Assembly (NCBI GenBank): GCA_046331345.1
Contig: JAXLRA010000006.1
Span: forward strand, 623,614-687,613
DNA from: Vicinamibacterales bacterium
Lineage (GTDB): Bacteria; Acidobacteriota; Vicinamibacteria; Vicinamibacterales; CAVVIG01
Length of the DNA: 64,000 bases
Reading direction: 5' to 3'
Part shown: piece by piece, positions 5,611-52,020 of the stretch
Numbering within the stretch: position 1 is the first letter of the stretch
How the letters are laid out: each line of letters opens with the position of its first letter
The notes under the pieces: generated by a model
Told to the model about the DNA's origin: nothing
Seen by the model: the letters and a program-made list of their open reading frames with translations, nothing else
Databases searched by the model: none
Position numbers and translations under genes: made by a program

Positions 5611-6525
5611 CTATCCGCGGCCAGCCTTCGCCGGCCGGCAGACGCCCTTGAGCGGGCACTGCGCGCTCCCGCGGGGCGTCCCGGATCCACAGGCGTTCAT
5701 CATGCCCAGATGGCAAACCGAGAAGTCGTACTTGATGGGATCCTCGGGATCCAGCGCACGGAGCGACCGGGTGATGTCCAGCGCCATGGGCCAGCCCGGA
5801 CTGGTGTAGCGGGTCAGCCGCAGGCAGCGCCCGACCCTGATGATGTGCGTATCGAGCGGCACGACCAGCCGTGACGGCGAGACGCGGCTCCAGATGCCCA
5901 GGTCGAGCGCGTCGCGGCGCACCATCCAGCGCATGAAGAGATTGAGGCGCTTGCACGCACTCCCGCCGGACGGACGCGGAAAGAAGTACCCGACGCCGGG
6001 CCTCGCAGGCACGCGCCCGTAGGCGGCCCGCAGATCGAGCGCCATGGCTCGCGCGGAGAAGCTGTCCAGCGCGTCACGGACATCCTCGCCGCCCGTGTCG
6101 CCTTCGAGGAAGAAGCCCTCGATCGAGCCGGATCGGTCCAGCATCTGGCGCAGCACCCAGAGGAGCGCGATCACGTCCACGCCGCGCGTCCAGCGGTGCA
6201 CGAAGTCGCGCAGCGGCCCGCCGTCGCGCGCGGGCTCGAACCGCCGGACGAACGCCGCCGGCCCGTCCCCCATCACGTCGGCGACCCGCCCGATCGACTG
6301 CATGACGCTGGTGACCCGGCCGAAGGCGAGTCCGGCCGCACAGAACGCCATCACCTCCTGATCGTCTGGCCGCGCATAGCGCCGCACGATCTGGATGGGG
6401 TCCGTCGCCGAGTCAGCCATGTTGAAGCTGTCGTACAACGCGTCCAGCGTTGGCTTCAGCACATCGGGTGTGCCCCTGCCGCTCCGTCGCACTTCCGTCT
6501 TTCGACCAGCCAATCCGCGATCCAA
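5611..6525 (-). CDS. TIGR02757 (DUF2400) family protein
   Basis: The motifs LNLFMRWMVRRDALDLGIW, VPLDTHIIRVG and DPIKYDFSVCHLG match my recollection of this family. The start is uncertain: TTG 6525, TTG 6513 or GTG 6492. Confidence 0.75.
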   Translation of the reverse strand: MDRGLAGRKTEVRRSGRGTPDVLKPTLDALYDSFNMADSATDPIQIVRRYARPDDQEVMAFCAAGLAFGRVTSVMQSIGRVADVMGDGPAAFVRRFEPARDGGPLRDFVHRWTRGVDVIALLWVLRQMLDRSGSIEGFFLEGDTGGEDVRDALDSFSARAMALDLRAAYGRVPARPGVGYFFPRPSGGSACKRLNLFMRWMVRRDALDLGIWSRVSPSRLVVPLDTHIIRVGRCLRLTRYTSPGWPMALDITRSLRALDPEDPIKYDFSVCHLGMMNACGSGTPRGSAQCPLKGVCRPAKAGRG

Positions 6526-6559
6526 TCTGAAATCAGCAATCTGAAATCTGCAATTCAGG
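6511..6559. repeat. heptad repeat tract (AATCTGA/AATCTGC type)
   Basis: caatccg cgatcca atctgaa atcagca atctgaa atctgca attcagg lies in the divergent region between the TIGR02757 gene and the acylase gene. Confidence 0.75.
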
Positions 6560-12789: not shown

Positions 12790-12894
12790 GGAATTGCAGA
12801 TTGCAGAATTCAGATTGCAGATTCGATTGCAGAATTCCAATCCGACATCGGCGAATTCCAGTTCTGAAATCTGCAATCTGAAATCTGCAATTCC
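12790..12894. repeat. inverted heptad repeat (CAGATTG x5 / CAATCTG arms) in the pyrR/pyrK divergent region
   Basis: Left arm: ggaattg cagattg cagaatt cagattg cagattc. Right arm: gaattcc agttctg aaatctg caatctg aaatctg caattcc. Confidence 0.85.
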
Positions 12895-46237: not shown

Positions 46238-46843
46238 CTATTCGCGCACGGACACGCGCGTGATCATGTCGCCGACCACCAGCTTCGCGGGCACATCGAA
46301 CCCTTCGATCACGCGGCCGATGACCGCGTACTGGCCGTCGAGTTCGGGCTTGTCATCGAGCACGACGTAGAGCTGGCTGTCGGCTTTCGCCGGCTCGCCC
46401 GCATGCGCCAGGCCCACCGCCATGGCGACATTCTTCCGCTTCAGTGAGACCTCGGCGACACCGATCGGTTTGCCGCTGGACGCCTCGACACCTCGCCCCC
46501 ACCACTGCTGCTTCTCGAGATCGCGCGTCTGCGGATCGCCGAACTGGACCACGAAGTGCGGCAGCGCGCGGTGCACGCGCTGGCCGTCGTAGAAGCGATC
46601 CTTCGCGAGCCCCACGACGTGCGCGACAGAGATCGGGGCGTCGTGCGGATACAGCTCGATGGCGAAGGTGCCCTGCGACGTCTCGACGACAAGGACCGGC
46701 GCGCTGCCCTGTGCCACGAGGCGCGGCCCGACGACGAGGTAGGCGCCAGCTGCGAGGAGGATACCGGCCACCACAAGCATGACGGCCCGGCCGCGACGCG
46801 TCAGCGACTGCAACTCGGTGAGGCGGGTGCGGGTGTTGGTCAT
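46238..46843 (-). CDS. cyclophilin-type peptidyl-prolyl isomerase (membrane-anchored or exported)
   Basis: ORF trimmed to ATG 46843. It has a transmembrane anchor followed by FAIELYPHDAPISVAHVVGL...FHRALPHFVVQFGDP. Its start overlaps the nth stop (ATGA). Confidence 0.88.
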   Translation of the reverse strand: MTNTRTRLTELQSLTRRGRAVMLVVAGILLAAGAYLVVGPRLVAQGSAPVLVVETSQGTFAIELYPHDAPISVAHVVGLAKDRFYDGQRVHRALPHFVVQFGDPQTRDLEKQQWWGRGVEASSGKPIGVAEVSLKRKNVAMAVGLAHAGEPAKADSQLYVVLDDKPELDGQYAVIGRVIEGFDVPAKLVVGDMITRVSVRE

Positions 46844-47547
46844 GACGCGAGGCGCTCCGGCGCCGGATGTTTCGACACCGCGCTCACCCCGCGCTTCGGG
46901 CAGTCCGGCTCGATTACGCAGCCGTTGCAGCGCGGGTAATTGGGCCGGCAGACGTTCTGCCCCCAAGTGACGAGGTAGAGGTTGATGTGCGGCCACCACT
47001 CTCGGTCGGTGGCGGCGTAGAGCGCCTGCTCGGTCTCTTCCGGTGTGCGGGTCTTCACCCAGCCGAGCCGGTTCGAGATGCGGTGGACGTGCGTGTCCAC
47101 ACAGATGTTCTGCTGGCTGCGGAACGACAGGATCAGCACGAGATTGGCGGTCTTGCGGCCGACACCCGGGAACAGGAGCAGTTCCTCCATCGTGCCCGGC
47201 ACGACGCCGCCGAACCGCTCGAGCAGCAACTGGCAGGTCGCCTTCACGTGCTTCGCCTTGGTGTAGAAGAAGCTCACCGGCTTGATCAGCTTCTCGATCT
47301 GCTTCACCGAGAGCTTCACCATGACGTCGGGAGTCGGCGCGACCTTGAACAGCCGCGTCGATGCCGCGAGCGTCGTGGCGTCCTGCGTCCGCGCGGAGAG
47401 GAGCGTCGCGATGAGGACCTGGAACGGATCCTCTTGCTGGGACTCGGAGATCTTCTCGATGGCCGGCAGCTCGAGCCCGGTGATGGCGCGGGAGAGCTTG
47501 CGCATCACGGCCTCCACGTTCTGCGGGCGCTTCGGCTTACGGCTCAT
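46840..47547 (-). CDS. nth: endonuclease III
   Basis: ORF trimmed to ATG 47547. It has an HhH-GPD region (LLLFPGVGRKTANLVL...VDTHVHRISNRLG) and the 4Fe-4S cluster CRPNYPRCNGCVIEPDC. Confidence 0.92.
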   Translation of the reverse strand: MSRKPKRPQNVEAVMRKLSRAITGLELPAIEKISESQQEDPFQVLIATLLSARTQDATTLAASTRLFKVAPTPDVMVKLSVKQIEKLIKPVSFFYTKAKHVKATCQLLLERFGGVVPGTMEELLLFPGVGRKTANLVLILSFRSQQNICVDTHVHRISNRLGWVKTRTPEETEQALYAATDREWWPHINLYLVTWGQNVCRPNYPRCNGCVIEPDCPKRGVSAVSKHPAPERLAS

Positions 47548-47564
47548 AAGATGAGAGCGATGCT

Positions 47565-47615: not shown

Positions 47616-48554
47616 CTACGGAATGGGAGTCACGGGCGGCCGTCCGCTCAGGACGGCGATCACATTCGCAGCGGCGAGGTCTGCCATCGCGGTACGCGTT
47701 TCGGTGGTCCCGCTGCCCAGGTGCGGCACGAGCAGCACGTTCTCCAGCTCGAACAGGTCCGGGTGGATCGTCGGCTCCTCTTCGTACACGTCGAGTGCGG
47801 CACCGGCGATGAGGCGCTGCTTGAGCGCCCACGCAAGCGCACCTTCATCAACCACCGGCCCGCGGGCCGTGTTGATCAGGTATGCGGACCGTTTCATCCG
47901 CGCGAGCGCCTTCTGGTCGATCAGGTGCTTCGTCTCCGGGGTCAGCGGGACGTGCAGCGAGACGATGTCCGAGGTATTGAGCAGCTGGTCGAGCGGCATC
48001 CGTTCGGCGCCGGCCAGCCCCTTGTCGCTCCGCGACGAATAGGCCACCTTCACCCCGAACACCGCGGCGCGGGCGGCCACGGCTGCGGCAATGCGCCCCA
48101 GCCCGACGAGCCCGAGCTGCTTGCCGCGCAGCTCCGTCCCCAGCATGTAGTCGAAGGCCCAGCCCTTCCACTCGTGCCGGCGCACGACGCGCTCGCCTTC
48201 CGAAATGCGGCGGGTGATGCCGAGAATGAGCGCCCATGTGAAATCGGCCACCGACTCGGTCAGCACGTCCGGCGTATTCGTGCAGATGACGTTGTGCGCC
48301 CGGCACGCGGCCACGTCGATGTTGTTGTAGCCCACCGCGACGTTGGCCACCACCTTCAGGTCTGTCCCCGCATCGAGGAGGGCATCGTCCACGCGCTCGG
48401 TCAGCATCGTGATCAGGGCGTGCTTCCCGACCACGGCCGCACGGAGCTGTTCCGGCGTAATCGTGCCCTCGCCGGCAAACACCTCGACGTTGCCGACAGC
48501 TTCGAGCTTCGTAATAACGGAGGACGGGAGCTTGCGGGTAACGAAGATGTTCAT
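47616..48554 (-). CDS. D-isomer-specific 2-hydroxyacid dehydrogenase (glyoxylate/hydroxypyruvate reductase-like)
   Basis: ORF trimmed to ATG 48554. It has the NAD motif GLVGLGRIAAAVA and a catalytic region (NTARGPVVDE...EPT...LVPHLGSGT). Confidence 0.88.
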   Translation of the reverse strand: MNIFVTRKLPSSVITKLEAVGNVEVFAGEGTITPEQLRAAVVGKHALITMLTERVDDALLDAGTDLKVVANVAVGYNNIDVAACRAHNVICTNTPDVLTESVADFTWALILGITRRISEGERVVRRHEWKGWAFDYMLGTELRGKQLGLVGLGRIAAAVAARAAVFGVKVAYSSRSDKGLAGAERMPLDQLLNTSDIVSLHVPLTPETKHLIDQKALARMKRSAYLINTARGPVVDEGALAWALKQRLIAGAALDVYEEEPTIHPDLFELENVLLVPHLGSGTTETRTAMADLAAANVIAVLSGRPPVTPIP

Positions 48555-48564
48555 TTCGGTCCGT

Positions 48565-48624
48565 GTAGTGTCCACCTTCAGGTGGACCACTCTGCTGACA
48601 GGCCCGCCTGAAGGCAGGCACTAC
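48565..48624. repeat. GC-rich REP-like composite hairpin (CTGAAGG core)
   Basis: The outer stem is GTAGTG...CACTAC. Inside it are GTCCACC-TTCA-GGTGGAC and GCCTG-AAGG-CAGGC. The first inner hairpin has the same sequence as 4847-4866. Confidence 0.75.
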
Positions 48625-48634
48625 ATGAGGCGTG

Positions 48635-48889
48635 TCAGTGCCCCAGAGACTTGCAGTAGCCGCAGTGGTCGCAACGATGGTTCGGTTCGATGATGCACTC
48701 GCCGTCCGGAGTGCCAGCCACGACGAACAGGCTGTGGCTTGCGTGAATCTGGATGCCTGCGGGTGCCGGCGACGGCGCAGCCGGCTGCGGGTGTTCCGCC
48801 TGCGGCTCGCGCGACACCCCGGGAGCCCCGGCATGCCTCGCGATGGCCTCGCGAATCATCGCGCGCAGATCCTGTTCAGAGAGCGCCAT
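48635..48889 (-). CDS. 84-aa hypothetical protein with an N-terminal encapsulation-peptide-like helix, a Pro-rich linker and a C-terminal Cys/His cluster
   Basis: ATG 48889 has an AGGTGG Shine-Dalgarno and lies 14 nt inside the upstream BMC-P gene. The sequence is MALSEQDLRAMIREAIARHAG - APGVSREPQAEHPQPAAPSPAPAG - ...GECIIEPNHRCDHCGYCKSLGH. Confidence 0.6.
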   Translation of the reverse strand: MALSEQDLRAMIREAIARHAGAPGVSREPQAEHPQPAAPSPAPAGIQIHASHSLFVVAGTPDGECIIEPNHRCDHCGYCKSLGH

Positions 48890-49154
48890 CGATGTCCACC
48901 TGATCGATGATCCCAATGACCGCCGCATCTACGGGCGCGCCCTTCTGCCCGAGCGCCTCGTTGGCAGCCCGCCCCTCGACCACGACCAGCACCTTCTCGT
49001 GCACGCCCGCACCAACACCGTCCACAGCCAGGAGCGGCGTGCCGCGCGGCGTGTCGTCGAGGTTGAGCGGCTGCACCATGAGCAGCTTGGCCCCCTCGAA
49101 CTTCCGGTGTTTCTGCGTCGAGACCACGGTCCCGATCACGCGGGCGATCTGCAT
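48876..49154 (-). CDS. BMC vertex pentamer protein (EutN/CcmL family), copy 3
   Basis: ORF trimmed to ATG 49154. The sequence is MQIARVIGTVVSTQKHRKFEGAKLLMVQPL...AVDGVGAGVHEKVLVVVEG...VDAAVIGIIDQV. Confidence 0.88.
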   Translation of the reverse strand: MQIARVIGTVVSTQKHRKFEGAKLLMVQPLNLDDTPRGTPLLAVDGVGAGVHEKVLVVVEGRAANEALGQKGAPVDAAVIGIIDQVDIDGAL

Positions 49155-49157
49155 CTC

Positions 49158-49232
49158 AGTTGGCGATGGGCGCTGGGCTATGGGCGCCGGGCCTGCTGGA
49201 GGCCTGCCGCCCATGACCTATCGCCCATGGCC
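49158..49232. repeat. inverted heptad repeat (TGGGCNN / GCCCATG) between BMC-P copies 2 and 3
   Basis: ttggcga tgggcgc tgggcta tgggcgc cgggcct gctggag gcctgcc gcccatg acctatc gcccatg. Confidence 0.7.
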
Positions 49233-49233
49233 G

Positions 49234-49500
49234 TTACTCCGTATTCCAATGGTCGACGATGCCGACGATGCCGGCGTCGACGGGGGCTTCGACCGGATAG
49301 AACGGAAAGCTGGCTTCCTTGCCGCGAACGAAGAACACCTCTTCGCCGACGCCCGCGCCGACGGCGTCGACCGCGACGAGCGGGCGTCCGGCCGGTTCCC
49401 GTTCCGGCGTGAGCGGCTGCACCAAGAGCAGCTTGATGCCGGTGAGGTTCTCGTCCTTGCGGGTCGAGACCACCGTGCCGATCACGCGGGCAATCTGCAT
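49234..49500 (-). CDS. BMC vertex pentamer protein (EutN/CcmL family), copy 2
   Basis: MQIARVIGTVVSTRKDENLTGIKLLLVQPL...AVDAVGAGVGEEVFFVRG...VDAGIVGIVDHW. Confidence 0.88.
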   Translation of the reverse strand: MQIARVIGTVVSTRKDENLTGIKLLLVQPLTPEREPAGRPLVAVDAVGAGVGEEVFFVRGKEASFPFYPVEAPVDAGIVGIVDHWNTE

Positions 49501-49501
49501 G

Positions 49502-49771
49502 TCAGGACGAGACTTCGATGGTGTCGATGATGCCGACGATGGCGGCGTCGACCGGGCAGTCCTTCATGCCCGACGCCATGCGCGCCGAGCTGCCCGAGAC
49601 GATGAGCACGGTTTCGCCGACGCCGGCGTCGACCGTGTCCACCGCCACGAGATAGCTGCCCTCGGCCTTGCCCTTCGGATCGACCGGCCTGACGATCAGC
49701 AGCTTGTTGCTGACCAGCCGGGGGTCCTTCCTGGTGGCGACGACCGTGCCTACGATCTTTGCGAGGAGCAC
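49502..49771 (-). CDS. BMC vertex pentamer protein (EutN/CcmL family), copy 1
   Basis: GTG start at 49771, 7 nt after the BMC-H stop. The sequence is (M)LLAKIVGTVVATRKDPRLVSNKLLIVRPV...AVDTVDAGVGETVLIVSGSSAR...VDAAIVGIIDTI. Confidence 0.85.
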   Translation of the reverse strand: MLLAKIVGTVVATRKDPRLVSNKLLIVRPVDPKGKAEGSYLVAVDTVDAGVGETVLIVSGSSARMASGMKDCPVDAAIVGIIDTIEVSS

Positions 49772-49778
49772 CCGACTA

Positions 49779-50069
49779 CTAGGCCTTCGCGTTCGCCTTG
49801 CCGATCGGCAGCACGTCCTCGAGGTTCGCGTGCGGACGCGGGATGACGTGCACGGAGACCAGCTCGCCGACGCGGCGCGCCGCCGCGGCACCGGCATCGG
49901 TCGCCGCCTTCACCGCCGCCACGTCGCCGCGCACAATGGCCGTCACGTAGCCGGCGCCGATCTTCTCCCAGCCGACGAGGCTGACCTTCGCCGCCTTCAC
50001 CATGGCGTCGGCGGCCTCGATCATCGCGACCAGGCCCTTCGTTTCGACCATCCCAAGTGCCTCACCCAT
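49779..50069 (-). CDS. BMC-H hexameric shell protein (PduA/EutM/CcmK-type single BMC domain)
   Basis: [60 protein letters not shown]...VHVIPRPH, with a GGAGA Shine-Dalgarno 8 nt upstream. Confidence 0.93.
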
Positions 50070-50083
50070 CGAGCGTCTCCAGC

Positions 50084-50186
50084 TGAATCTCGAATTTCAG
50101 ATTTCGGATTTCAGAATTCAGATTGGAAATGCGGGACCACAGATTGGTTTCAACCTGAAATCTGCATTCTGAAACCTGCAAGTGCC
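50084..50186. repeat. inverted heptad repeat (TCAGATT / ACCTGAA arms) between the aldolase and BMC-H genes
   Basis: Left arm: ctgaatc tcgaatt tcagatt tcggatt tcagaat tcagatt. Right arm: acagatt ggtttca acctgaa atctgca ttctgaa acctgca. Confidence 0.85.
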
Positions 50187-50198
50187 CTGTCCCTGCCC

Positions 50199-51089
50199 TC
50201 ATTTCAGGCTGCGGATCGCATCCTCGATGAGCGCAGACAGTTCGCGGTATGTTAACCGAATTTCCTCGTCCCCTGCCGGCTCCGCCGCCGTGGCGTTCGG
50301 GAGGGGCGCACCCGGGACAATCGGATCCGGCACCAGCCGGCTCCGGCCGTCGCCCTCGGGCGCCTGCACGACCTGACAGGTCACAGGCTCAGGCCCGGAC
50401 AACAGATCGCCCACAACGGACGGATCCGGACAGATCGGGGCCGGGGCCTTGATCCCGTAATTGTTCCGGAGCCCCTGGAGGCGGTCCACTTCGTCGCGCG
50501 CAATCAGGTTCTCGCGACCGAGCATGCGCGCCACGAGGCTGATCTTGGCGAAGTGCTCGATGGTTTCGAGCTTGTAGTAGGCCGCGAAGAGATCGGCGCC
50601 CAGGGTCAGCGCGCCGTGGTTCGCCAGCAGCATGCCGTCGTGCGCCTTCACGTACTTCCGCACCGCCGCAGGCAGTTCGGACGTCGAGGGCGTCGCGTAT
50701 TCCGCAATCGGAATGCTGCCGAGCGTGGTCAGCACCTCGGCGAGCACGGCCCGGTCGAGCGGAATGCCCGCGACGGCAAACCCCGTGGCAATGGGCGGAT
50801 GCGCGTGGCAGACCGCCCTGGCATCAGGGCGCTGGCGATACACCTCGAGGTGCATCAGCATCTCGGACGAGGGGTCGCGATCCCCCTGGATCTTCTTCCC
50901 GTCCATGTCCGTGATGCACATCATGTCCGGCGTCATGAACCCCTTGCAGACGCTGCGGGGGGTCATGAGCAGGCGGTCCTCGCCGAGGCGGACGCTGATG
51001 TTCCCGTCGTTCGACGCGGTGTAGCCGCGTGAGTACATCCGGCGGCCGACCTCGACGATGTCGGCGCGCAGCTGCGATTCGACGGTCAT
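50199..51089 (-). CDS. class II aldolase/adducin-family enzyme with a Pro-rich linker and a C-terminal encapsulation-peptide-like helix
   Basis: ORF trimmed to ATG 51089. The core reads ASNDGNISVR...PSSEMLMHLEVYRQRPDARAVCHAHPP...LLANHGALTLG. The tail reads ...PDPIVPGAPLPNATAAEPAGDEEIRLTYRELSALIEDAIRSLK. Confidence 0.88.
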   Translation of the reverse strand: MTVESQLRADIVEVGRRMYSRGYTASNDGNISVRLGEDRLLMTPRSVCKGFMTPDMMCITDMDGKKIQGDRDPSSEMLMHLEVYRQRPDARAVCHAHPPIATGFAVAGIPLDRAVLAEVLTTLGSIPIAEYATPSTSELPAAVRKYVKAHDGMLLANHGALTLGADLFAAYYKLETIEHFAKISLVARMLGRENLIARDEVDRLQGLRNNYGIKAPAPICPDPSVVGDLLSGPEPVTCQVVQAPEGDGRSRLVPDPIVPGAPLPNATAAEPAGDEEIRLTYRELSALIEDAIRSLK

Positions 51090-51397
51090 GCGGTGCGGCC
51101 CTGCGTGGCCATCCGCCCGGCGTGCTGGCCCGCGACGAACTGGTCGCGACACCCGGTCGAGCAGAAATAGACGCGATCGCCGTTCGTGCCCGAGAGGGTC
51201 ACGGCCCTGTCAGGAACGACAAAGGTGCCGCAGATCGGGTCGCGCGACATCTGGACGCTGCGCTGGGGTGAGCGCGAACCCGGGCGCGGAGCCGCCGTGC
51301 TCCCATCCTGCATCCCGCGGATGATGCCGGCCCAGAGGCGCGACACCGCCCGGACGACGATCGTCAGCAGGATCGACAGGAGGATGAACCGAAGCAT
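51086..51397 (-). CDS. small membrane protein with a YHS/TRASH-type metal-binding domain
   Basis: ATG 51397 gives the transmembrane helix MLRFILLSILLTIVVRAV, followed by RDPICGTFVVPDRAVTLSGTNGDRVYFCSTGCRDQF. It has ATGA overlaps with both neighbouring genes. Confidence 0.7.
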   Translation of the reverse strand: MLRFILLSILLTIVVRAVSRLWAGIIRGMQDGSTAAPRPGSRSPQRSVQMSRDPICGTFVVPDRAVTLSGTNGDRVYFCSTGCRDQFVAGQHAGRMATQGRTA

Positions 51398-52020
51398 CAG
51401 GCTCCCGGCTTGGCGGCCGTCGTCGTGTTGCCGCCCGGGTGAGCCGACTTCAGGCTGTCCAGGGCGCGCTTCGCGGCCTGCCCTTCGGGACCGTTGGGGT
51501 CGATCTGAATGACCTGCTGCCAGGCCTGTTCGGCCCCCGCCAGGTCCTGCTTGCCGAAGGCCCGGACAATCCCCTGATTCAGGAGTGTCTTGGTGTGCTT
51601 CGGATCGATCTTCAGCGACTCCTCGAACTGGGCCAGCGCCTGATCGGGCTGGTTGGTGTAGTAGTAGCTCACGCCAAGGTCGGTGCTGACGTTGACGTCC
51701 TTCGGGTTCAGCTTGAAGGCTTCGCCGTACCACTTGATGGCGTCGGCGTAGCGCTCTGAGTCGAAGTAGAGGTTCCCCAGGTCGATGCGGGGCTGCGGGT
51801 TCGTGGGCTGTTGCTGGGCCACCGAACTCAGCGCGTTGACCTTGTTCTGGTCCAGCACCGGCGCCGTGGGCGCGGCCGCTGCCGGCGCCGAGGCCGGGGC
51901 TGATGCAGCAACAGGCGCTGCGCCCCCGCGCATGACCGCCTGCTGGCTCCCAATCACCCAGCCGGACAGCAGCCCGAAGACCACACCGGCAATACCTACA
52001 GCAATCGCGTCAGGTCTCAT
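51397..52020 (-). CDS. membrane-anchored tetratricopeptide-repeat (TPR) protein
   Basis: An N-terminal transmembrane segment and an Ala/Pro linker are followed by TPR-like repeats (LGNLYFDSERYADAIKWYGEAFKLNPKDVN...). Confidence 0.75.
   Translation of the reverse strand: MRPDAIAVGIAGVVFGLLSGWVIGSQQAVMRGGAAPVAASAPASAPAAAAPTAPVLDQNKVNALSSVAQQQPTNPQPRIDLGNLYFDSERYADAIKWYGEAFKLNPKDVNVSTDLGVSYYYTNQPDQALAQFEESLKIDPKHTKTLLNQGIVRAFGKQDLAGAEQAWQQVIQIDPNGPEGQAAKRALDSLKSAHPGGNTTTAAKPGA

Follow-up and report, generated by a model that had tools for sequence, protein, structure and literature searches.

Bacterial microcompartment (BMC) loci of the PDU, EUT and GRM types have a lyase or a dehydratase as their signature enzyme, and their core consists of an acylating aldehyde dehydrogenase, PduL/Pta and an Fe-alcohol dehydrogenase. 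In the PVM type of Planctomycetes and Verrucomicrobia (L-fucose/L-rhamnose), the aldehyde-generating enzyme is a PF00596 aldolase, and an aldehyde dehydrogenase, a phosphotransacylase and further enzymes are encoded beside the shell genes. A type found in Acidobacteria only, ACI, was defined from 125 loci by Sutter, Melnicki, Schulz, Woyke & Kerfeld 2021 (Nat Commun 12:3809; PMC8217296), with hosts mainly in subdivisions 4 and 6. According to the text and Supplementary Data 2 of this catalogue, the ACI set comprises a PF00596 aldolase tagged at its C-terminus by an encapsulation peptide (EP), a BMC-P triplet, one BMC-H and a protein of about 80 aa that carries an EP at its N-terminus and conserved Cys in its C-terminal domain; the main locus also contains a PF00389/PF02826 hydroxyacid dehydrogenase (PMC8217296). 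The ACI aldehyde dehydrogenase is EP-tagged and 'consistently' placed on a satellite locus, which is present 'in most genomes' (PMC8217296). The catalogue sets the ACI aldolase apart from the PVM aldolases and finds it most similar to those of the HO (Haliangium ochraceum) and MIC3 (metabolosome with incomplete core 3) types, and it reports MIC3 as the sole type with a relative of the ACI aldehyde dehydrogenase; the PVM aldehyde dehydrogenase is listed in its HMM table as PvmJ (PMC8217296).

The locus described here lies on the minus strand of a 64-kb stretch of DNA (hereafter the window) and is very probably the main locus of an ACI-type BMC in a Vicinamibacterales genome (Acidobacteriota), because its gene content, order, tags and taxon match the catalogued type. 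We take Vicinamibacterales to be the catalogue's 'subdivision 6'. The taxon and all ACI components listed for the main locus are matched, and nothing of substance differs there. The gene set had already been catalogued in 2021 and is not a new BMC type. Prior assignment to a described type had been named in the first-pass annotation as a refuting outcome, and such an assignment exists, although ACI is not known to have an assigned substrate.

Organisation and conservation of the locus

Domains were assigned with Pfam and NCBIfam models, scored against the model cutoffs. The string (52020–48635) encodes, in order, a TPR protein, a YHS-like protein, a class II aldolase, a BMC-H, three BMC-P and an 84-aa Cys/His protein; open reading frames, sequence and Pfam agree on this gene list and order, as first-pass annotation had given them. 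Its spacings were also recovered from the sequence, with BMC-H and BMC-P1 separated by 7 nt, BMC-P1 and BMC-P2 by 1 nt, and the genes of BMC-P3 and the small protein overlapping by 14 nt. The first three genes had been described as tied by ATGA overlaps, which is correct for the YHS/aldolase junction but not for the TPR/YHS junction, where the sequence is TGATG with a 1-nt overlap. The extent of the locus had been drawn too short: about 80 nt downstream, the string runs on into a gene for a D-isomer-specific 2-hydroxyacid dehydrogenase (47616–48554, minus strand; 312 aa from the ATG at 48554) with PF02826 (E=7e-58) and PF00389 (E=4e-27) domains. The closest NCBIfam model of this enzyme is glyoxylate reductase (327 bits, under the cutoff of 455), and no EP-like extension was seen in its N-terminal alignment. 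The gene lies directly downstream in 60 of 68 related loci, and in the catalogued ACI type it closes the main locus.

Conservation of gene order in relatives, which had been proposed as a check on the locus, is borne out. The locus is carried by 75 other genomes, almost all of them from records labelled Acidobacteriota or Vicinamibacterales, and the order TPR-YHS-aldolase-H-P1-P2-P3-small is collinear in 66 of these 75 loci. Counted over the related loci with enough flank, each of the eight genes is present in 97–100%. In a second lineage, the locus is barer still and consists of a permease, an aldolase, H, P, P and P.

The first gene of the conserved string (51397–52020, minus strand; 207 aa) encodes a membrane-anchored TPR protein (Pfam TPR_2, E=1e-18), with an N-terminal hydrophobic helix (aa ~6–25, read by eye from the sequence as a membrane helix), a linker rich in Ala and Pro, and roughly three TPR repeats; it is found upstream in 67 of 67 related loci with enough flank. 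The second gene (51086–51397, minus strand; 103 aa; 66 of 68 loci) encodes a small membrane-anchored, YHS/TRASH-like, putative metal-binding protein. Its match to Pfam YHS is weak (21 bits, under the cutoff of 30.3), and its motifs R-D-P-x-C-G-T, F-C-S and C show conservation of 97% or more among 44 orthologues. To the catalogued ACI type, the present analysis adds these two genes as constant, translationally coupled members in the order Vicinamibacterales.

The aldolase and the 84-aa protein

The signature enzyme (50199–51089, minus strand; 296 aa) is a predicted metal-dependent class II aldolase of the FucA family (PF00596 Aldolase_II, E=4e-49), and its gene is found in 68 of 68 related loci. 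The catalytic domain (aa 10–184) is followed by an extension with two conserved Cys (C220 and C238), which are a further addition to the ACI description, and by a variable linker. The C-terminal EP (aa 275–296, EEIRLTYRELSALIEDAIRSLK; 50202–50267, minus strand) was recognised from a conserved motif, eIRLTY..L..LI.DA...L, which follows the linker in 61 orthologues, and from the helical hydrophobic moment, which reaches its maximum for the protein here (0.71; mean 0.25, sd 0.13). The proposal that an EP-tagged class II aldolase is the signature enzyme of the locus is upheld.

The PF00596 enzyme falls short of the cutoffs of all NCBIfam equivalog models, and its best match is a decarboxylase model. 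It could be that the shell is of ACI type and the enzyme is instead an OtnC-like decarboxylase, an epimerase or a dehydratase, in which case the compartment would be no aldehyde trap; this alternative bears on the chemistry alone and leaves ACI membership untouched. The top model is 3-oxo-tetronate 4-phosphate decarboxylase (OtnC; 137 bits, E=7e-40), which outscores the FucA models (best 119 bits, against a cutoff of 264), and the Cys-bearing extension and a co-encoded, tagged Cys4/His4 protein point the same way. However, the OtnC score is far under its cutoff of 250, L-fuculose-phosphate aldolases are the nearest relatives of known structure (E about 1e-24), and an aldehyde dehydrogenase partner is attributed to the ACI type (PMC8217296). 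The FucA-type residues are retained (E76 in PSSE, H95/H97 in HAHP and H158 in ANHG), but the Glu and the three His are common to the whole family and do not discriminate. A non-aldolase enzyme is considered unlikely, and aldol cleavage to DHAP and an aldehyde, followed by oxidation, is given an even chance.

The aldolase had been regarded as the only product with a targeting helix; the 84-aa mini-protein (48635–48889, minus strand), a putative cargo, also bears an EP-like helix, at its N-terminus (aa 5–20, about 48830–48877). A Pro/Ala linker connects this helix to a C-terminal Cys4/His4 domain (aa 49–84) that ends in GH. AlphaFold2 predicted the helix at aa 5–20 with pLDDT of 84–90 and the remainder with low confidence. 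The residues C65, C73, C76, C79, H49, H52, H75 and H84 are invariant among 28 homologues, giving four Cys and four His where the catalogue reports three Cys. The protein is 100% identical to 'hypothetical protein U0Q55_11195 [Vicinamibacterales bacterium]', from a Vicinamibacterales MAG. It showed no credible Pfam family (one below-cutoff match) and no NCBIfam family. A profile search with the mini-protein returned 260 clusters at 50% identity, and the best 150 of these are almost all small proteins of 60–135 aa; exceptions among the best 150 are a 224-aa read-through and one protein of 183 aa in which the domain is C-terminal.

The shell and the missing core enzymes

The shell set consists of one BMC-H and three BMC-P, as first reported, with one PF00936 gene and three adjacent PF03319 genes in Pfam. 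The BMC-H hexamer shell protein (49779–50069, minus strand; 96 aa; PF00936, E=5e-30) scores above the NCBIfam EutM cutoff (146.5 bits against 133), shares 77% identity with E. coli EutM, shows the standard K25 and IPRPH motifs, and is 91–100% identical among 70 loci. The BMC-P paralogues (PF03319 EutN_CcmL) are encoded, all on the minus strand, at 49502–49771 (P1, 89 aa, GTG start, E=9e-33), 49234–49500 (P2, 88 aa, E=3e-30) and 48876–49154 (P3, 92 aa, E=5e-30). They share 45–53% mutual identity (45–51% for P1 with P2 and P3) and 40–45% identity with EutN, and positional orthologues are present in 70/70, 72/72 and 74/74 loci, respectively. The original reading of the string as a BMC locus was correct.

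The spacer between the aldolase and BMC-H genes (50070–50198) carries a dispersed inverted repeat of 7-nt units, AATCTG[A/C]. Four sites in the window carry this element (18 matches against 0.06 expected), which is not specific to the BMC locus. The spacer is just 4–30 nt long in many other ACI loci, and its predicted RNA fold is not unusual (z=-0.2).

The window was searched by tblastn and by phmmer/hmmsearch on 769 six-frame ORFs of at least 40 aa, with E. coli EutE, EutG, EutD, EutL, EutS, EutK, EutM and EutN, a PduL sequence, and profiles built from the shell proteins encoded here as queries. Nothing was matched in the 64 kb beyond 48.6–50.1 kb, in agreement with the earlier statement that core enzymes and BMC-T are lacking: no aldehyde dehydrogenase, phosphotransacylase, PduL, Fe-alcohol dehydrogenase or BMC-T was found in the window, and the single BMC-domain gene is not accompanied by any tandem-domain protein. 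The same enzymes and BMC-T were not found in the 75 related loci, whose sequence was taken to a distance of up to 10 kb either side of the marker gene. Since the catalogue places the aldehyde dehydrogenase on a satellite, a neighbourhood without this enzyme is the expected ACI pattern and therefore no evidence of its absence from the genome.

The locus shares with the PDU, EUT and GRM types homologous shell proteins and EP-targeted cargo; in contrast, it lacks their core enzymes, and its signature enzyme is an aldolase. The likeness to PVM that had been suggested holds at the level of the enzyme family, with the same presumed logic of ketose-1-phosphate to DHAP and aldehyde, and does not extend beyond it. 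Assignment to PVM was rejected, as the PVM aldehyde dehydrogenase, phosphotransacylase and associated enzymes were not found in the window and the phylum here is Acidobacteriota. The BMC-P triplet is shared with HO and MIC3. HO differs in having its own aldehyde dehydrogenase and BMC-T(dp) shell proteins and in occurring mainly in Myxococcota; the HO type was also rejected, as the window has a single BMC-domain gene and showed neither a tandem-domain protein nor an aldehyde dehydrogenase.

The reading preferred in the first-pass annotation, a truly minimal or new BMC type working without aldehyde dehydrogenase, phosphotransacylase or alcohol dehydrogenase, would account for the lack of core enzymes and BMC-T in the window and in the flanks of the 75 loci, and the barer locus of the second lineage would also suit it. 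It is nevertheless very improbable, given that the same gene set makes up the 125-member ACI type and that an EP-tagged aldehyde dehydrogenase is assigned to the ACI satellite (PMC8217296). That the string is itself a satellite of a canonical PDU, EUT, GRM or PVM locus elsewhere in the genome, as the missing core enzymes might suggest, is hardly credible, because a locus with BMC-H and BMC-P, here together with the signature enzyme, is a main locus by the catalogue's definition (PMC8217296), the string stays together in 66 genomes, and the satellite part of ACI is the aldehyde dehydrogenase.

Working model of the ACI compartment

For this ACI main locus, we propose a shell in which the single BMC-H would form the facets and the three BMC-P paralogues the vertex pentamers. 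Amphipathic EPs would draw two products into the lumen, the aldolase by its C-terminal tag and the Cys4/His4 mini-protein by its N-terminal tag; the latter would probably bind a metal or an Fe-S cluster. The TPR and YHS-like membrane-anchored proteins would be accessories that are co-transcribed in the order Vicinamibacterales, with a possible role in localisation or in supplying metal. The metal-dependent FucA-family aldolase would cleave a ketose-1-phosphate to DHAP and a reactive aldehyde, for which lactaldehyde, glycolaldehyde and acetaldehyde are candidates. The aldehyde would be trapped and then oxidised by the EP-tagged aldehyde dehydrogenase, which is satellite-encoded according to the catalogue (PMC8217296), and the untagged D-2-hydroxyacid dehydrogenase would most likely remain outside the shell and act on a product or in cofactor balance.

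Gene organization of the locus

The minus strand between positions 52020 and 48635 encodes eight tightly spaced genes: a TPR protein (207 aa; TPR repeats and a hydrophobic helix at the N-terminus), a YHS-like protein (103 aa; N-terminally hydrophobic, weak similarity to YHS), a class II aldolase (296 aa), a single BMC-H, three BMC-P (P1, P2 and P3) and a Cys/His-rich mini-protein of 84 aa. All of these assignments were upheld by Pfam and NCBIfam except the mini-protein, for which one below-cutoff Pfam match and no NCBIfam match were obtained, and which has no credible family. The eight-gene extent reported in the first-pass annotation stands, but the string runs on past 48635 into a D-isomer-specific 2-hydroxyacid dehydrogenase gene (48554–47616), about 80 nt further along the same strand. 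The reported spacings are also correct, except for one of the ATGA overlaps described as linking the first three genes: the TPR/YHS junction is TGATG, with a 1-nt overlap, and the YHS/aldolase junction is a true ATGA overlap. Behind its single hydrophobic helix, the YHS-like protein retains the pattern RDPxCGT...FCS..C, as is typical of metal-binding domains of the YHS/TRASH kind.

In the alignment, the dehydrogenase is not extended at its N-terminus and carries no obvious terminal tag. The spacer between its gene and that of the mini-protein (48555–48634) contains nested GC-rich hairpins, CCTGCCTTCAGGCGGG and TCCACCTGAAGGTGGA, with flanks GTAGTG...CACTAC. These hairpins overlap an upstream GTG at 48590 that serves as the start codon in one metagenome gene call; of the two starts, the ATG at 48554 fits the alignment of orthologues better. 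A promoter and terminator scan gave no signal exceeding shuffled background.

Tandem 7-nt units, AATCTG[A/C], occur in inverted arms at 2448–2558, 6524–6550, 12797–12887 and 50098–50171 (18 matches in the window, compared with 0.06 expected), and form a dispersed, intergenic, REP- or MITE-like repeat. A copy occupies the aldolase/BMC-H spacer in the window and in its closest relatives (loci L004, L005, L006, L008 and L078); in many other loci of the same type this spacer is merely 4–30 nt. The AT-richer spacer was considered as a regulatory RNA and rejected, since it is a dispersed genomic repeat, its fold is not unusual and it has no Rfam match.

Assignment to the ACI type and conservation in relatives

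The locus is very probably a bacterial microcompartment (BMC) of the ACI type. This type was defined in a 2021 catalogue (Sutter et al., PMC8217296), whose text describes 125 loci, from Acidobacteria only and mostly from subdivisions 4 and 6. [quoted passage not shown] The window's locus agrees item for item with this description. The possibility of a minimal or novel BMC type, raised in the first-pass annotation, is thereby withdrawn, as a described type with this gene set already exists; the accompanying caveat that an equivalent class might already have been catalogued was well placed. Within this known and functionally uncharacterised BMC type, the locus is an ordinary representative; a literature search found the type described or characterised nowhere besides the catalogue (PMC8217296).

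The mini-protein is 100% identical to GenBank 'hypothetical protein U0Q55_11195 [Vicinamibacterales bacterium]', and a lineage lookup places Vicinamibacterales within Acidobacteriota. Relatives were collected by scanning a mini-protein profile against one genome per species and then mapping all window proteins onto the matches. The resulting 75 loci come nearly all from Vicinamibacterales, Vicinamibacteria or Acidobacteriota records. Synteny between the aldolase and the shell genes in close relatives, singled out earlier as a point to check, is kept: the TPR, YHS-like, aldolase, BMC-H, P1, P2, P3 and mini-protein genes are fully collinear in 66 of the 75 loci. The other nine are mostly interrupted by contig ends, and two have no detectable YHS-like match. 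Each gene occurs in 97–100% of the loci with sufficient flanking sequence, and the dehydrogenase lies directly downstream in 60 of 68. P1, P2 and P3 each match their own positional counterpart across loci, with a mutual identity of just 45–53%; therefore, they represent three old orthologous groups, as expected of a 'triplet'. In the related loci mapped, the conserved neighbours include neither a sugar kinase nor an isomerase.

An endonuclease III-like gene (46840–47550, minus strand) is found downstream within ~2.6 kb in 52 of 66 genomes, even in loci without the dehydrogenase (L010, L016, L017, L020 and L031), and is probably a conserved neighbour outside the BMC. Complete ACI loci of ~70% GC were also seen in MAG records titled Bifidobacterium, Bifidobacteriaceae and Acidimicrobiia (L009, L010, L054, L057 and L078). 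These records are almost certainly mislabelled or mis-binned, rather than exceptions to the restriction of ACI to Acidobacteria.

One of the BMC-H matches, P0132, pointed to a second lineage, of 56% GC, with an aldolase-H-P-P-P arrangement (L080–L083, e.g. L080:6748–10617) and the order 144-aa protein, amino-acid permease, aldolase, BMC-H, three BMC-P and then ruvA/ruvB. Its aldolase (254 aa) carries a C-terminal EP and is 44% identical to that of the window. The locus DNA contains no mini-protein, dehydrogenase, TPR, YHS-like or aldehyde dehydrogenase gene, and may represent a subdivision-4 form of ACI.

Two products with encapsulation peptides

The conserved operon encodes a complete minimal shell set (one type of hexamer and three of pentamer), together with two products that carry an EP. 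The first, the aldolase, has L-fuculose-phosphate aldolase as its closest solved relative (E about 1e-24) and keeps the acid/base glutamate E76 (PSSE) and the metal-binding histidines H95, H97 and H158 of that enzyme. Every NCBIfam equivalog score is under cutoff, the top model being a decarboxylase of the same fold. Three parts follow the catalytic domain: a conserved two-Cys segment, a linker that varies, and a terminal helix (EIRLTY..L..LI.DA...L) that is again conserved and has the highest amphipathic moment within the protein. The Cys pair (residues 220–238, window 50376–50432; motifs APAPxC and xCQ) lies after the catalytic domain and ahead of the EP. C220 does not vary among 61 aldolase orthologues, and C238 is kept in at least 90% of them; no mention of the pair was noticed in the catalogue text consulted (PMC8217296).

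The second, the mini-protein, begins with a helix, LSEQDLRAMIREAIARH, that is similar to the aldolase EP and is modelled by AlphaFold2 with a pLDDT of 84–90; outside the EP the model is poor (mean pLDDT 61). Its C-terminal domain contains four invariant cysteines (C-x7-C-x2-C-x2-C) and four invariant histidines, the last of which is the final residue. A search of 1.84 billion representative proteins with the mini-protein profile returned 260 clusters, and the best 150 of these are nearly all small proteins. The ten longest relatives examined among the best 150 mostly have the same EP-linker-Cys/His architecture, the exceptions being one with a different N-terminal region and one read-through into the dehydrogenase. 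A RiPP precursor, with a conserved leader and a Cys-rich core, was rejected because none of the loci encodes a modifying enzyme and the supposed leader is similar to the EP of the aldolase.

Core enzymes and possible function of the compartment

The window was searched by tblastn, and by phmmer/hmmsearch over 769 six-frame ORFs of at least 40 aa, with E. coli EutE, EutG, EutD, EutL, EutS, EutK, EutM and EutN (MG1655 eut operon), a PduL sequence and profiles built from the shell proteins of the locus itself. No Eut, PduL or shell query matched the 64-kb window outside 48.6–50.1 kb, the PduL check being weak. The two approaches thus agree with the first-pass annotation that the 64 kb lack an aldehyde dehydrogenase, a phosphotransacylase, an alcohol dehydrogenase and a BMC-T, again with a weak check for PduL. 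This exclusion rests on tblastn and phmmer/hmmsearch because the whole-window Pfam scan covers the best 25 of 82 families. Moreover, EutE-, EutG-, EutD- and PduL-like genes and BMC-T are found in none of the 75 related loci, within the DNA covered, which extends at most 10 kb to either side of the marker gene (that of the mini-protein). The absence of core enzymes near the locus is a defining trait of the ACI type, not an anomaly.

The ACI aldehyde dehydrogenase is reported to carry a ~50-aa tail (PMC8217296). When homology between this tail and the mini-protein was tested, the best 150 of the 260 mini-protein clusters included no protein of aldehyde dehydrogenase size. A metagenome search for BMC-H homologues yielded 7,938 protein clusters with E ≤ 1e-20, the best 120 of which are all at least 86% identical and are main-locus copies. 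Scanning the metagenome collection with a GC-biased DNA pattern encoding GAGNPPV returned 120 stretches, 34 of them from true EutE/PduP-like enzymes. Intact C-termini among these 34 end in the usual EutE/PduP manner, the divergent members examined in full have N-terminal tags, and none of the 34 has an ACI-type C-terminal EP with an extra domain. GAGNPPV also occurs within a conserved FLPFN.G..GAGNPPV motif in long ORFs, often of about 1,000 aa, on ~20 soil contigs among the metagenome loci L084–L203; our guess is that these are restriction-enzyme-like proteins.

From family chemistry and the catalogue description, the aldolase would cleave a ketose-1-phosphate within the shell to DHAP and a reactive aldehyde, which would be consumed by an EP-tagged aldehyde dehydrogenase encoded elsewhere. 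The untagged D-2-hydroxyacid dehydrogenase would be cytosolic, with a product as its substrate or a role in redox balance, and the mini-protein may carry a metal or an Fe-S cluster. We consider the chances of such aldehyde-trap chemistry to be roughly even. An improbable alternative is that the ACI compartment is a metal- or redox-dependent organelle rather than a plain aldehyde-trapping metabolosome. The tagged Cys4/His4 mini-protein would then be a putative carrier of an Fe-S or metal cofactor in the lumen, and the Cys pair of the aldolase extension would join in metal or redox chemistry. The membrane-anchored TPR and YHS-like proteins, whose genes are translationally coupled, would supply metal or tether the compartment to the membrane.

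What is new from this copy is one more ACI member and descriptive details, namely the constant TPR and YHS-like partners, the Cys4/His4 pattern of the mini-protein and the paired cysteines of the aldolase tail. Relatives of this BMC-H are very common in metagenomes, and ACI occurs in Acidobacteria alone, a group that ranks with the most abundant bacteria of soil. Taken as a whole, the ACI type is a reasonable target for experiments.
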